NCBI GenBank assembly: GCA_944358675.1
Contig: CALVRN010000003.1
Coordinates: 3,163 to 67,162, forward strand
Origin: an uncultured Bacilli bacterium
GTDB taxonomy: Bacteria > Bacillota_I > Bacilli_A > RF39 > UBA660
DNA length: 64,000 nt
Direction of reading: 5' to 3'
Of this stretch, positions 30,721 through 53,058 are shown piece by piece. Both the position numbers and the translations under genes were made by a program. Position 1 is the first letter of the stretch; each line of letters begins with the position of its first letter. The notes below the pieces were generated by a model that saw only the letters and a list, made by a program, of their open reading frames with translations, had not been told where the DNA came from and ran no database searches.

Positions 30721-31176
30721 TCACTTATTATCACATACTAAATTTTGTTCATTTGTTTGATTACATTTGAAATTACCAAAAGTTAGATCTTTGACAGTTA
30801 CAGTTCCATCGGTATTAATAGTAACACTTCCGGCTTTAGGCAGTTTTCCTTGATTTTTTATATTTAACTGTCTTTTATAATTAACTTTTTTGCCATTTTC
30901 ATAGAAAGTATATCCATTTTTATCAAACACTACTTTAAATGGAAGGCCCACTTCATTAGTTAAATTCATATCTACATAAAATGATTTAACAGTATCAATT
31001 GTACCTTTAGTACTGGTTTCTGAAGAATTTTTAGCCATATTATATACAATTTTTGATATAGATGGTACAAGTATAATGAGTATTATCATAAAAAAAACTA
31101 ATATTGCACTATACTCGACTATTTTTATTGTACTATTACGTTCATTTTCTTCTTTCATATAACCAGCCTCTATCAT
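30721..31176 (-). CDS. membrane-anchored hypothetical protein (N-terminal TM, extracytoplasmic domain)
   Basis: 151 aa. ...KIVEYSAILVFFMIILIILVPS TM. No canonical G|FTLxE, so it is not a typical pilin. Confidence 0.5.
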   Translation of the reverse strand: MIEAGYMKEENERNSTIKIVEYSAILVFFMIILIILVPSISKIVYNMAKNSSETSTKGTIDTVKSFYVDMNLTNEVGLPFKVVFDKNGYTFYENGKKVNYKRQLNIKNQGKLPKAGSVTINTDGTVTVKDLTFGNFKCNQTNEQNLVCDNK

Positions 31177-31325
31177 AATAATAGCATATTATAGTTTTTT
31201 AAGCAAGGAAAATGGTATATGATATTTTGCATTTTTTTATTAACACATATTTACACACTTTAAGGTTTTAAAGATATATTATTTTTATTTAAAATGTTAT
31301 AATTATTTATGAAGGGGTGATATAG

Positions 31326-31910
31326 ATGAATAGAAAATTGAAATTTATTTTAGCTGTTATTGCCCTTGTTTTTTGTATCACACAAATTCAACAAACTTAT
31401 GCGAAATATGTGGATACTAAAGAAGGAGATACTAATTTTACAGTAGCTAAATGGAAAATATTAGTTAATAACCAAGATATTACGGAAGCTGCAACAATGT
31501 CTTCTTTGATTAATCCAGTTTATGTTCAAAATGATAATGTGGCGGAAGGTGTGATTGCGCCTGGTAGTGAAGGTTATTTTGATTTGGTTATAGATGCGAG
31601 TAAAACTGAGGTTTCATTCCAATATAATATTTCAGTTACTACTTCAGAAAATAGTAGTGTTAAGGATTTAATTATTACAGGTTATACTTTAAATGATGGA
31701 ACACTAATTCCTGTTGATAGTGAGCTTAATAATATTTCTAATACGGTTTACTATTACAGCGAAAATAAAGTTAATAGTCTTAGGGTTTATTTTAAATGGC
31801 TTGATGGCGATGGTGAAAGCATGGATAATAGTGCGGATACTGAGGCTTCTTTAAGTAATAATAGTGCGAAATTAAAAGTTAATTTATCATTTATACAGAC
31901 AAAAGATTGA
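31326..31910 (+). CDS. secreted protein with a SipW-cognate (TasA/CalY/camelysin-type) signal peptide; paralog of 40405..40971
   Basis: 194 aa. Signal ...LVFCITQIQQTYAKYVDTKEG (TasA-like A-x-[FY]-x-D class). Shares KWKILVNN / APGSEGYFDLVIDA / FKWLDGDGE blocks with 40405..40971 (KWHIYVND / APGSKGEFILEIDP / FSWTDSEE). Size matches camelysin/TasA-like proteins. Confidence 0.65.
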   Translation: MNRKLKFILAVIALVFCITQIQQTYAKYVDTKEGDTNFTVAKWKILVNNQDITEAATMSSLINPVYVQNDNVAEGVIAPGSEGYFDLVIDASKTEVSFQYNISVTTSENSSVKDLIITGYTLNDGTLIPVDSELNNISNTVYYYSENKVNSLRVYFKWLDGDGESMDNSADTEASLSNNSAKLKVNLSFIQTKD

Positions 31911-31927
31911 GTTATTTCTCAATCTTT
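31900..31927. terminator. bidirectional hairpin agattgag-ttattt-ctcaatct between convergent genes
   Basis: Perfect 8-bp inverted repeat overlapping the stop of 31326..31910, followed by TTTTG. Confidence 0.5.
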
Positions 31928-32515
31928 TGTTTGGCTTGCTTTAATTTTTACAATAATTTTTATTTGAGGTTCATTACTTTCCTCTTTAAATTCATATGAT
32001 TTTTTTCCATAATAGGTATCGGCTTCATCATCTCCTGATTCAAAAGGCCAGTTTAAAGTTGCGGTAAAGTTTCCTGTTTGCCCAACCGTAATTTCAGTAT
32101 CACTATTTATAAAAGATAATTTAAAAGGATAATTATTATTTAAAATATTAATGAGCTGTTCTTGAGTGTAATTTTCTTTGGTATATGTTTCATCAAATAT
32201 TTGGATAGACTCAATTTGATAACTAATATAAGCGGTCATTTCTCCATTGTTAGTAATATCTATTTGTTTTACTTGAGTATCAATTCCAGGATAAATATCA
32301 TCAAAATTAAATTCAACATTTTCTTCTAAGTCTTGTCCATCTTGGTCAAATGTTATTTTCCACGAGCGAACACCGGTGGTGATACTATTTGATACTTTGT
32401 TTGTATATATAAACCAAGCGAAACTATTAGCTATTAAAGCAATTACTAGAAAAAATAAGGTCCTTTTTCTAATCCTTTTTTTTATTTGTTTTAATTTATT
32501 TTGTTTCTTCATCAA
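31919..32515 (-). CDS. secreted protein with SipW-cognate signal peptide (module A cargo)
   Basis: 198 aa. ...LVIALIANSFAWFIYTNKV signal of the A-W-F-T type. C-terminal L-N-W-P-F-E-S-G-D-D-E motif shared with the other island proteins. Overlaps the upstream sipW by 20 nt. Confidence 0.65.
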   Translation of the reverse strand: MMKKQNKLKQIKKRIRKRTLFFLVIALIANSFAWFIYTNKVSNSITTGVRSWKITFDQDGQDLEENVEFNFDDIYPGIDTQVKQIDITNNGEMTAYISYQIESIQIFDETYTKENYTQEQLINILNNNYPFKLSFINSDTEITVGQTGNFTATLNWPFESGDDEADTYYGKKSYEFKEESNEPQIKIIVKIKASQTKD

Positions 32516-33062
32516 TTTCTTCTTCTTTGTTTTTAATATGATCTAATATTTCAAGGAATATTAGAAAAGCAAGTGGAACAAAGACTAGAAAGTAGAAACC
32601 ATAGGAATTATTTAAAATATGACTTAAAAAGCTTAAAAGTGCGGGTTTATATTTAACAACACCATAGATTTGTGAACTATCTATTTCTGGATCATCGGCA
32701 TTATTTGCTGTACCTCTAGTCGTAAAGGTATATTCTCCGTTGTTTTTTTCAATATTGACAACTCTATGGGTTACAATTTTATCAGTAAAGTCACCTTTTT
32801 TACCTAAATAAGCGACATCATCTCCCACTTTAATGTTTTCTGGATTTTCTTGTTTGACAATAACGACATCATATATATCATAATCCGGTTTCATACTGCC
32901 TGATACAATTGTAAACATACGGTAACTACCGATTGATACTTTGTTATCAAAAATTCTTTGAATTAATACAACTGCAACTATTAAAATAACAAATATCCAT
33001 ATAATTATTTTTAAAATTGTCAATAAGATTTTTATAAATTTATTATCTAATATTTTACTCAT
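32496..33062 (-). CDS. sipW: signal peptidase I, SipW/archaeal-ER type (catalytically intact)
   Basis: 188 aa. N- and C-terminal TM. SGSMKP (catalytic Ser), THRV (His), TRGTANNADDP. Same architecture as B. subtilis SipW of the tapA-sipW-tasA operon. Confidence 0.8.
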   Translation of the reverse strand: MSKILDNKFIKILLTILKIIIWIFVILIVAVVLIQRIFDNKVSIGSYRMFTIVSGSMKPDYDIYDVVIVKQENPENIKVGDDVAYLGKKGDFTDKIVTHRVVNIEKNNGEYTFTTRGTANNADDPEIDSSQIYGVVKYKPALLSFLSHILNNSYGFYFLVFVPLAFLIFLEILDHIKNKEEEIDEETK

Positions 33063-52004: not shown

Positions 52005-52077
52005 ACTATCCCTACCTTTATATTCATAATAATTTTATCACATTATGTCAAAGTTTGTAAATAAAAGGGCATTTAAA

Positions 52078-52098
52078 AAGCACTATTTTTTAGTGCTT
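52078..52098 (-). terminator. hairpin aagcacta-ttttt-tagtgctt at the end of the 105-aa gene
   Basis: 8-bp perfect inverted repeat overlapping the stop codon. T-rich flank on the minus strand. Confidence 0.5.
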
Positions 52099-52407
52099 TG
52101 ATTTATTATTTACAAGTCCAAAATCAAAATCAGATTTATCTTTGACAATGCTTATGGACATAGTTTTAAATAAGTCATTTAAATCTAAAGTGTCTTCACT
52201 AATTTGTTTGGTTTCTTCTTTTATTATTTTTTCTTTTTCTGGCATTTTTACATCTTCAATGTCATAATTTTCTATTTCTGACATAAAGTCTCTAATTTCT
52301 TTTTGAAGTTCGTTTGAAAGAGGATTGTTTTTTTCTTGTTTTGATTTAAAAACTAGTAAAAGGGATACTATAATGATGATTAAAACTACTATAATTATGA
52401 TATACAC
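52090..52407 (-). CDS. small membrane-anchored acidic protein
   Basis: 105 aa. N-terminal TM IIIVVLIIIIVSLLLVF, acidic C-terminus. Confidence 0.5.
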   Translation of the reverse strand: MYIIIIVVLIIIIVSLLLVFKSKQEKNNPLSNELQKEIRDFMSEIENYDIEDVKMPEKEKIIKEETKQISEDTLDLNDLFKTMSISIVKDKSDFDFGLVNNKSKH

Positions 52408-52476
52408 TATTTATCCCTCCTTATTCTAGATATATTTTAACATTTTTTTGTAAATCATTCAATATTTTGATTAAGT

Positions 52477-52502
52477 GAAAAAAAAGAACTATTTCTAGTT
52501 CT
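52477..52502 (-). terminator. strong terminator after the type IV pilin gene
   Basis: agaacta-tttc-tagttct hairpin (52485-52502) overlapping the stop, then T8 on the minus strand (A8 at 52477-52484). Confidence 0.65.
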
Positions 52503-53058
52503 AATCTTGTCCTTCGTAAGTTCCTCCAACAAAGTTTGCAGCATCATCAGCACTTTCTAATTCTACATCGCTTTCTGTTCTTGAGCAGAACATTGAGTTT
52601 GGATCAAAAGTTTCTGTTCCTTCTTTCATAGTAGTACAGTAATATTGACCAAATTTCAATTTGTAAGCAATGATATTACCATCTGCTTGGATAGTAACAT
52701 AACCACCTTGTGGCATTTCACCACTTGCTGATACGGCTTGGTTGTTGATATATCCTTTACCATATCCTCCACCTGTAGCAGTTACAGTACCCCAATCTGT
52801 GTTTTGTGAACCTTTACTAGAACCTTTAGGGAAGTTAACAGTAAATGGAATACCTACTGGATCACTATCTACTTGAGCTTGTGAATATGCAACTCTAACA
52901 GCATCGATAGTTCCCCATGCTTTATCGACAGCTGCATTTCTTCTTGATTGTTCGATAACGTTCAAAATGATTGGAGTTGTAATTAAGGCGATAATAGCTA
53001 AGATAACGATTACGGCCAATAGCTCAATCAAAGTAAAACCTTTAGAATTCTTTCTCAT
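52501..53058 (-). CDS. type IV pilin (PilA-like major pilin)
   Basis: 185 aa. MRKNSKGFTLIELLAVIVILAIIALITTPII is the prepilin leader and N-methyl-Phe helix (G|FTLIE). C-terminal Cys pair YYCTTMKEGTETFDPNSMFC is the D-region disulfide loop. AGGAGGTG RBS. Candidate promoter TTGATT - 17 - (TGa)TATATT upstream. Confidence 0.8.
   Translation of the reverse strand: MRKNSKGFTLIELLAVIVILAIIALITTPIILNVIEQSRRNAAVDKAWGTIDAVRVAYSQAQVDSDPVGIPFTVNFPKGSSKGSQNTDWGTVTATGGGYGKGYINNQAVSASGEMPQGGYVTIQADGNIIAYKLKFGQYYCTTMKEGTETFDPNSMFCSRTESDVELESADDAANFVGGTYEGQD

Follow-up and report, generated by a model that had tools for sequence, protein, structure and literature searches.

Genes between lepA and valS

We describe here a gene cluster of ~21 kb in a 64,000-nucleotide stretch of DNA from an uncultured Bacilli bacterium (contig CALVRN010000003.1); the whole of this stretch is called the window in what follows. 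Twenty contiguous open reading frames (ORFs) of at least 100 amino acids (aa), numbered from g01 (30721-31176) to g20 (52501-53058), lie between lepA (28851-30653) and valS (53129-55675), and we argue that they include the genes of a lineage-wide system that probably builds a surface filament. A preliminary description, made from the letters of the DNA, had placed about 22 genes at this location, all of them on the minus strand; the location stands, whereas the count comes to 20 and one ORF, g02 (31326-31910), is on the plus strand, leaving 19 on the minus strand. The claim that the cluster has no homologues elsewhere in the window is borne out, since a tblastn search at E ≤ 0.01 found no paralogues of the 20 proteins there. 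The rest of the window carries housekeeping genes, including the arginine deiminase pathway, several tRNA synthetases, pyruvate kinase, FtsW/RodA and thymidylate synthase. Searches of Pfam and NCBIfam with all 20 proteins gave matches limited to the peptidases, DUF2357, a pilin motif and the signal model TIGR04088, along with a weak one to FtsL, and the sole PADLOC match among the cluster proteins is that of an AAA core to the candidate defence protein PDC-M26A. Rfam contains no riboswitch or leader that matches within the cluster, and a search for tandem-repeat DNA gave nothing relevant.

About nine cluster proteins carry N-terminal anchors or signals, and the following rows give the putative fibre subunits and their relatives.

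38165..39190, minus strand: g10, 341-aa putative major subunit; signal TYA-WFTANKTVSV... (hyphen at the predicted cut), C-terminal motif WIEGQDVDC
50321..51307, minus strand: g17, 328-aa paralogue of g10 with a TYAWFTAN signal
51291..52004, minus strand: g18, 237-aa membrane-anchored protein (transmembrane (TM) segment 26-44) with C-terminal hairpin motif IYLEGDDPEC
40405..40971, minus strand: g13, 188-aa small secreted protein, predicted beta-sandwich, isoelectric point (pI) 4.2; superfamily g02/g03/g11/g13
39275..39835, minus strand: g11, 186-aa small secreted protein of the same superfamily
31919..32515, minus strand: g03, 198-aa small secreted protein with NSFAWFIY signal and WPFESGDDE motif
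31326..31910, plus strand: g02, 194-aa small secreted protein, paralogue of g13 (blastp 1.5e-14)
36695..37612, minus strand: g08, 305-aa protein with N-terminal TM anchor (15-33) and conserved extracellular domain

Nine proteins with signal peptides of the TasA/CalY class had been proposed at the outset. That number of anchored or signal-bearing proteins holds approximately, but the hidden Markov model of the SipW-cognate signal, TIGR04088, is passed by g10 only (20.5 against a threshold of 19). The g17 protein, 43% identical to g10 (blastp 1.8e-88), scores a sub-threshold 14.4 bits, and the remaining signal peptides resemble the type by motif only. A C-terminal motif with cysteine, W-I-E-G-Q/D-D-x-D/E-C, had similarly been thought common to the secreted proteins; it is confined to g10, g17 and g18, and the small proteins have instead a related acidic W...N..D[ST] motif without cysteine and a terminal ...Q-x-x strand. 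The cysteine (C321 in g10, with counterparts in g17 and g18) is the single invariant one, set in an acidic motif of otherwise cysteine-poor extracellular proteins of an anaerobe. The hairpin motif is all that g18 has in common with the g10 family (hhalign 90% over 41 columns), and the g18 gene is directly upstream of the major-subunit gene in 19 loci; the two motifs are homologous, and g18 is a candidate for the base or anchor of a fibre. For the small proteins, hhalign against the g13 family gives 99.9% for g02, 92.5% for g03 (168 columns) and 90.3% for g11 (164 columns), the alignments spanning 164-181 columns after fused ORFs had been removed by a length filter. An apparent link between g08 and g11 (hhalign 98%) was rejected, as it came from fused ORFs in the alignments and fell to 75% after length filtering. 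These secreted and anchored proteins are mostly acidic, with a pI of 4.2-5.0 for g02, g03, g10, g11, g13, g16 and g17, and of 5.8-6.0 for g18 and g08.

AlphaFold2 models of g10 and g13, predicted with database homologues in place of the locus-derived sequences, consist of a beta-sandwich behind an N-terminal helix, with a mean predicted local distance difference test score (pLDDT) of 79.9 each; their paralogues g17, g02, g03 and g11 are likewise classed as beta-sandwich proteins. Each model has a sole low-confidence stretch, residues 28-47 in g10 (pLDDT <50) and 24-37 in g13, and in both it lies just past the predicted cleavage site. This post-cleavage N-terminus, with its alternating hydrophobic residues, is among the most conserved parts of both the g10 and the small families: A35, W36, F37, T38, N40 and V43 are invariant in g10, and the same or nearly the same holds for A40, W42 and N47 in the small family. 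The donor strands of TasA, BsaA and the archaeal threads behave like these segments (PMC11580942; PMC9715654). The top Foldseek match for g10 in the PDB is a Sulfolobus thread subunit (E 1e-2, probability 0.69); overall, three fold searches returned only weak, generic beta-sandwich matches, carbohydrate- and collagen-binding modules included, and did not single out any one fold. PDB sequence searches with g10 and with the g10-family and small-family profiles gave no match.

The cluster also encodes four signal peptidase homologues.

32496..33062, minus strand: g04, predicted active SipW-type (TIGR02228) signal peptidase I; 82.7 bits against a cut-off of 51.85
39819..40400, minus strand: g12, predicted active SipW-type (TIGR02228) signal peptidase I; 76.9 bits against a cut-off of 51.85
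37605..38096, minus strand: g09, SipW-type paralogue predicted to be catalytically dead; weak match
40968..41492, minus strand: g14, paralogue of g09, also SipW-type and predicted to be catalytically dead; TIGR02228 27.6 bits, below cut-off

The g04 and g12 proteins follow a consensus of an S-x-S-M serine box, a T-H-R histidine box and a G-D/T-A-N-N box, seen as SGSM, THR and RGTANN in g04 and as SNSM, THR and GDANN in g12, and these boxes are conserved across the aligned orthologues. In g09 and g14, alignments of paralogues and orthologues show the catalytic Ser and His to be replaced and both TM helices to be kept; thus, of the four SipW-type peptidases proposed earlier, all are homologues but only two retain the catalytic residues. 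Against the SipW equivalog NF046067, the two presumably active enzymes reach 70.0 and 56.8 bits where the cut-off is 190, and judging from these profiles they are members of the wider archaeal/endoplasmic reticulum-type signal peptidase I family (TIGR02228), not SipW orthologues. A peptidase gene is followed by the gene of a signal- or anchor-bearing protein four times over (g14-g13, g12-g11, g09-g08 and g04-g03). In one other species (L063:7138-8388), a g04-type peptidase is fused in frame to a g03-type cargo, as confirmed by translation, in the order peptidase, TM segment, Glu/Lys-rich linker, second TM segment ending AFNAFAWF, and cargo. This natural fusion is an argument that at least that peptidase acts on the adjoining cargo, and it suggests processing in cis or by a dedicated enzyme. 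In another species (L085:5772-6878), the source gene call is a single 368-aa product, likely to be a candidate g12-g11 fusion from its size and position, which are those of g12 and g11 combined.

The properties of the secreted proteins could also be read without a polymer, in terms of an adhesin complex anchored in the membrane, or of a coat on the cell surface, whether S-layer-like or a matrix layer. Generic beta-sandwich matches that include carbohydrate- and collagen-binding modules would suit such an arrangement, as would the apparently uncleaved anchors of g08 and g18 and a major protein whose degree of conservation, with 50-65% identity across genera, is unusual in an exposed fibre. A conserved, disordered post-cleavage N-terminus with alternating hydrophobic residues is, on the other hand, the hallmark of a donor strand; a major subunit with several minor paralogues and dedicated peptidases is typical of pili; and the best Foldseek match is a filament subunit. 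We therefore regard a non-polymeric structure as rather unlikely and favour a filament.

The remaining large and soluble proteins outside the GTPase module are the following.

43160..50299, minus strand: g16, 2379-aa protein with N-terminal signal or anchor, repeats and a conserved C-terminal ~330 aa
41539..43062, minus strand: g15, 507-aa protein; no TM segment, and no relative of known function detected
35703..36683, minus strand: g07, 326-aa protein; no TM segment, and no relative of known function detected

The giant g16 protein, called a beta-solenoid protein in the preliminary description, is repetitive, residues 700-1470 consisting of ~25-residue [YF]GG[GS]N units; it has no Pfam or NCBIfam match and is a candidate adhesin. 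The g15 gene adjoins the giant-protein gene wherever both are seen. PDB sequence searches with the g15 and g07 family profiles gave no match, and the proposal that the cytoplasmic proteins form coiled coils finds no support in a crude heptad test, which was not significant for g05, g06 or g07.

Conservation and arrangement across species

At least 499 loci encode a g10 relative in GTDB contigs taken at one genome per species. In a 90% clustered database, g10 has 3581 homologues at E ≤ 1e-3; a search with its family profile yields 3984 clusters at 50% identity, of which 493 reach E ≤ 1e-30. Most of the records are from human, Hadza, sheep, deer and chicken gut and are titled uncultured Tenericutes, Mycoplasmatota, Acholeplasmataceae, Bacilli bacterium, Clostridium sp. 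CAG:914/609/628 or Firmicutes bacterium CAG:321/884; the CAG-named relatives presumably fall in GTDB orders such as RF39. Some cluster contigs are in bins labelled Muribaculaceae, Bacteroidaceae, Sphaerochaetaceae, Vescimonas and Acidaminococcus (for example L009, L013, L019 and L021), and these are probably mis-binned or mislabelled metagenome-assembled genomes.

All 20 proteins were mapped onto 83 loci. A set of 33 loci is well flanked, the sequence extending 9 kb or more to either side of the g10 homologue. The genes fall into three blocks, X (g18-g17-g16-g15), Y (g14-g13-g12-g11-g10) and Z, which follow one another as X-Y-Z in the window and as Y-Z-X or Z-X in other species; two loci on long contigs, fetched via g06 homologues, have block Z and then X. 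The order g08-g07-g06-g05-g04-g03 is kept in all loci that reach that far, and g02 is on the opposite strand in 17 of the 19 loci that have it, as it is here. Within 10 kb of the g10 homologue, a peptidase is found in 33/33 well-flanked loci, the giant protein in 29/33, g15 in 26/33 and the GTPase in 15/33. Some species have a single major subunit, and the most distant ones have a reduced set consisting of g18, a major subunit, g15, a peptidase and the giant protein. In two reduced clusters (L076:12925-14998 and L071:6820-8588), two or three extra ORFs without a counterpart in the window are located between the g15-like gene and the peptidase gene (120-141 aa, 403-439 aa and, in L076, 156 aa), and the reduced-cluster peptidase (415 aa) has a long C-terminal cytoplasmic extension with no fused cargo. 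The NTPase and cytoplasmic proteins had been counted as parts of the system from the start, and this assignment is upheld by the order kept in every locus that reaches them and by the two loci fetched via g06.

The cluster had been interpreted as an accessory island. Its position between two housekeeping genes, the terminators that bound it and the lack of paralogues elsewhere in the window would all be in keeping with a recent acquisition, and the strong terminators reported at both ends are indeed present, as hairpins with T-runs read directly after g01 and after g20. Its GC content is, however, like that of its flanks (0.285 against 0.291 and 0.273; ~28% for the window), there are no tRNA genes in the window and no integrase or transposase match among the cluster ORFs in Pfam and NCBIfam, and lepA is still adjacent in two relatives (L005 and L027, with 65% and 52% g10 identity) despite their differing block content. 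Taken with the presence of the cluster in at least 499 species-level genomes and with its rearranged blocks, these features leave the island interpretation unsupported, no search aimed specifically at flanking direct repeats having been made, and we consider recent acquisition highly improbable. The cluster is old and vertically inherited, its blocks having been shuffled between species.

An appendage or outer layer of the spore, in place of a fibre of the vegetative cell, is brought to mind by TasA, which was first found as a spore-associated, SipW-dependent protein (PDB 5of1 is titled "Spore coat-associated protein N"), by the predicted ability of RF39-type Bacilli to sporulate (PMC10868615), and by a gene for a SpoIVA-type ATPase directly downstream of the g10 orthologue in one relative. 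This adjacency is, however, seen in one locus only, where an integrase-bearing element comes next, and the window has no sporulation gene in or beside the cluster; a spore-associated structure thus appears improbable. In a further species (L085:107-4568), the cluster is directly downstream of ftsY, ylxM (UPF0122), a DUF87 ATPase gene and ffh, a proximity to signal-recognition-particle genes that may be coincidental.

The signals of the operon, and the genes at its edges, are listed below.

52434..52462, minus strand: promoter-like site TTGAAT-17-TAAAAT with TG-extended -10, from a consensus scan and direct reading
38136..38165, minus strand: terminator-like hairpin and T-run, AGAGAAA-ATAG-TTTCTCT, directly after g10; read directly
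31896..31933, no strand assigned: hairpin with a 16-bp stem, where g03 (minus) and g02 (plus) converge
52090..52407, minus strand: g19, 105-aa protein with N-terminal TM segment (2-20) and acidic tail; no orthologue in the 83 loci
52501-53058, minus strand: g20, type IV prepilin with canonical N-terminal methylation motif (N_methyl 3e-9)
30721-31176, minus strand: g01, divergent paralogue of g20 (blastp 2e-10; 27% identity) without a clear prepilin motif

Promoter-like sites are no commoner here than in shuffled sequence, and the one at 52434..52462 is not significant alone; a strong ribosome-binding site, AGGAGGG, follows it and precedes g19, the first gene of the operon. The consensus scanner missed the hairpins after g01, g20 and g10 because their stems are AT-rich. 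Scanning for promoters and terminators proved uninformative in this AT-rich DNA, and the terminators were therefore read by eye. The hairpin between g03 and g02 is a bidirectional terminator that ends the long minus-strand operon. Downstream of the hairpin after g10 is an extended -10-like element, TGATACAAT, and the two together fit a high expression of the major subunit and a boundary between blocks Y and Z; a terminator-like hairpin right after g10 is what would be expected if g10 were an abundant major subunit.

The g19 protein is species-specific, and its membership of the system is uncertain. The pilin-like g01 and g20, which have a common C-terminal pattern (G.VTI..DG...L.FG...C), were rejected as members, being found with the cluster in 3/83 and 2/83 loci, respectively, and in the case of g01 only in loci of the same species. 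They bracket the cluster, and no pilus assembly genes were seen among the larger window ORFs scanned. Elsewhere in the window, two T-box leaders, both on the minus strand, are found at 12057-12257 (144 bits), upstream of the leucyl-tRNA synthetase gene, and at 56401-56608 (114 bits), upstream of an HD-domain gene (55647-56372). The latter gene overlaps the start of valS, which thus appears to be co-transcribed behind it under T-box control. An 873-aa ORF at 18232-20853 on the minus strand, among the housekeeping genes, has no Pfam match at E ≤ 1e-5.

The McrB-like module and known systems

Two adjacent genes encode relatives of the McrBC restriction proteins.

34178..35692, minus strand: g06, 504-aa McrB-like putative GTPase; Walker A GISGTGKT, Walker B ILDEMN, invariant INNDD
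33055..34164, minus strand: g05, McrC-like partner; DUF2357 (McrC N-terminal domain) 4.1e-13

The g06 protein begins with 60 conserved, aromatic-rich residues, which are followed by a TM segment (62-80), a basic stretch, a conserved helical region and the AAA+ domain. Its family profile, built from 18 orthologues, matches the E. coli McrB structures (PDB 6hz4, E 2.7e-4) in an alignment that spans Walker A, Walker B and the signature region (GTINNDDS in g06, GLMNTADRS in McrB), and INNDD is invariant in the 18 orthologues; together with the TM segment, this agrees with the initial identification of a membrane-anchored McrB-like AAA+ protein. In all the PDB sequence searches, for which g06 itself was also a query, McrB was the sole match, and it came with the g06 family. 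Residues 56-131 give weak matches to FtsL (E 0.035-0.036, far below the NCBIfam cut-off). The g06 protein is the most conserved of the cluster, with 67-85% identity among species where g10 has 41-65%, and its AAA+ domain is nearly invariant. In g05, no nuclease domain is matched, none of the Asp and Glu residues beyond position 135 is invariant among 19 orthologues, and the C-terminal half is helical. The domain content of the two proteins is thus that of an McrBC-like pair with neither a DNA-binding domain nor a nuclease.

Since McrBC relatives are overwhelmingly restriction systems (PMC11090510), g05 and g06, perhaps with g07, might be an anti-phage defence merely embedded in the operon and unrelated to the fibre. 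The DUF2357 domain of g05 and the resemblance of g06 to E. coli McrB and to PDC-M26A (5e-34) point in that direction. The PADLOC match is, however, limited to the AAA core; a membrane anchor replaces the DNA-binding N-domain of McrB; g05 has no PD-(D/E)xK match in Pfam and no invariant acidic residue in its C-terminal two thirds; and the position between peptidase and cargo genes is kept across species down to ~45% g10 identity. Furthermore, g05 and g06 are the most conserved genes of the cluster, the opposite of what is usual for defence genes, and the authors of the McrBC census themselves set the CoCoPALM clade apart as pilus-linked (PMC11090510). A defence role strikes us as very improbable; the module is always inside the cluster where it is seen and appears to be an integral part of it.

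CoCoPALM is the name given by Bell et al. (eLife 2024; PMC11090510) to an FtsB-like McrB GTPase linked to signal-peptidase genes, and the locus fits this named, uncharacterised class by the features described. First, the NxD motif of the clade is usually followed by D or E (PMC11090510), and g06, with its profile match to the McrB structures, has D in the invariant INNDD. Second, an N-terminal TM segment, with a stretch that may be FtsB/FtsL-like (the FtsL matches being weak), takes the place of the DNA-binding domain, and the DUF2357 partner g05 is McrC-like, apparently without a working nuclease. Third, four TIGR02228-type paralogues are in the same operon, and the order g06-g05-g04 is kept in all loci that reach it. 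It is the linkage of GTPase and signal peptidase and the NxD(D) motif that match the published class. The definition of CoCoPALM also includes coiled coils, in the GTPase and in McrC fusions, for which the heptad test on g05 and g06 was not significant. The system had been called undescribed, and this does not hold for the association of GTPase and signal peptidase, which is already known; the published account is a single paragraph with no characterisation, details being deferred to a forthcoming publication (PMC11090510), and has no gene inventory, cargo families, dead peptidases, giant repeat protein, three blocks or host range such as those seen here. As far as we have found, this remaining content is new: a literature search found no later use of the name CoCoPALM, and searches on SipW/TasA with RF39 and on TIGR04088 found no description of the cluster.

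The other systems to be compared are filaments built around TIGR02228-type peptidases. The tapA-sipW-tasA locus of Bacillus and sipW-calY of B. cereus likewise have a dedicated peptidase of this type adjoining secreted proteins, signal peptides ending in an aromatic-rich T-[WY]-A/[AWLK]-F site (slash at the cut), and beta-sandwich cargo with a free N-terminal segment, in the form of a major protein and accessory paralogues. As proposed initially, the system described here is a much larger, multi-component one: it has four peptidase paralogues, two of them apparently inactive, instead of one, as well as six cargo paralogues, and adds a giant repeat protein, the GTPase module and cytoplasmic proteins without known relatives. 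The sipW-bsaA-bsaB-bsaC locus of Clostridium perfringens is similarly SipW-linked and belongs to an anaerobic member of the Bacillota (PMC11580942). Type IV pilin genes are involved there, whereas the two pilin-like genes flanking our cluster are not conserved with it, and BsaA oligomers are locked by isopeptide bonds (PMC11580942); no vWA protein is encoded in the cluster, and no NTPase is reported in the bsa operon. Among archaea, the donor-strand filaments compared (Sulfolobus threads/Saci_0406, AbpA bundling pili, AbpX, cannulae and Tafi) belong to a TasA superfamily of proteins that are exported by Sec, cut by signal peptidase I and composed of an N-terminal tail joined to a beta-sandwich core. 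The clusters that encode them contain a major subunit with cap-, anchor- or adhesin-like paralogues, often beside a TIGR02228 peptidase, an enzyme commonly encoded next to TasA-superfamily filaments (bioRxiv 10.64898/2026.01.04.697558; PMC11580942; PMC9715654). Canonical McrBC, finally, shares with g06 and g05 an AAA+ GTPase core with the McrB signature motifs and a partner with the activating N-terminal domain of McrC, and differs in the DNA-binding domain and nuclease that are missing here, in the membrane anchor and in the fixed place within a secretion/fibre operon.

Despite these likenesses, the family relationship to TasA and CalY that was claimed at first is not found in the sequences. 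The TIGR02228 and TIGR04088 models do detect g04 and g12 and g10, respectively, but Peptidase_M73 (TasA) matches none of the cluster proteins at E ≤ 0.1 and none of 28 members of the small family at E ≤ 1. In hhalign, the small family gives 2% probability against TasA (the sequence used being checked against 8aur), with only the signal peptide aligned, and the matches listed among cluster representatives for the g10-family profile were strong members only, with no stepping stone to TasA. With no match to M73, in the PDB profile searches or in hhalign, and with structural matches that are weak and generic, membership of the TasA family is not supported by sequence. That the proteins belong to the TasA superfamily in its wider sense is plausible, though unproven.

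A proposed surface filament

Our favoured interpretation, which we hold to be reasonably probable, is that the cluster, of the CoCoPALM class, has been passed on vertically throughout a lineage of uncultured low-GC gut Bacilli and builds a surface filament with a giant adhesin. In such a system, precursors would be inserted by Sec and cut by g04 and g12 after the T-Y-A-type site, thus exposing the conserved N-terminal segment (WFTANKTVSVNPIDVNV in g10). This segment, disordered in the monomer models, would then probably slot into the following subunit and act there as a donor strand, a mechanism also used by TasA, BsaA, archaeal threads and bundling pili. Polymerised via this strand, g10 and g17 would form the shaft, and the small paralogues may serve as minor, initiator or terminator/capping subunits. 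The fibre would be anchored in the membrane by g18 and g08, with g16 as its adhesin and g15 as the cytoplasmic partner of g16, and the dead peptidases g09 and g14 may hold uncleaved precursors as binding scaffolds. In the least certain part of the scheme, g05 would activate a hexamer of g06 that couples the hydrolysis of GTP to an event at the membrane, be it assembly, export or turnover.

Several points weigh against this proposal. No filament has been seen, the organism being uncultured; no similarity found in the sequences connects the proteins with TasA or with a filament subunit of solved structure; and 18/33 well-flanked loci have no GTPase module in the 10 kb to either side of the major-subunit gene. 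To our knowledge, strand-donation filaments of this kind need no NTPase, and the case for a coupling role of the GTPase thus comes from linkage and conservation. A bolder possibility is that an McrBC GTPase, devoid of nuclease and DNA-binding domains, was recruited for the energy coupling or gating of a new class of Gram-positive filament, with the inactive peptidases as membrane chaperones or ushers of signal-anchored subunits. We put this forward tentatively, as an idea with a smaller though real chance of being correct. If true, it would amount to a donor-strand pilus machine that depends on NTP, unlike any of the chaperone-usher, sortase, type IV and TasA systems, and a major uncultured lineage of the gut would have it as a core trait, perhaps as a means of attachment to the host or to partner cells.

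Few lineage-specific features are as well conserved as this cluster in the large group of uncultured gut Bacilli with reduced genomes that is found in gut metagenomes of human, ruminant and other animal hosts, and of the ~19 proteins of the cluster almost none has a family in Pfam or NCBIfam. For the CoCoPALM class, the locus provides a starting inventory that comprises subunit families, a likely major subunit, anchors, an adhesin and a peptidase-cargo fusion. If the structure is a fibre, the question is what a GTPase derived from McrBC, together with inactive peptidases, does in donor-strand assembly, a process that elsewhere is free of energy input. The system would then be a candidate attachment organelle of as yet ungrown organisms, with possible consequences for the way in which these bind to their host or to partner cells.

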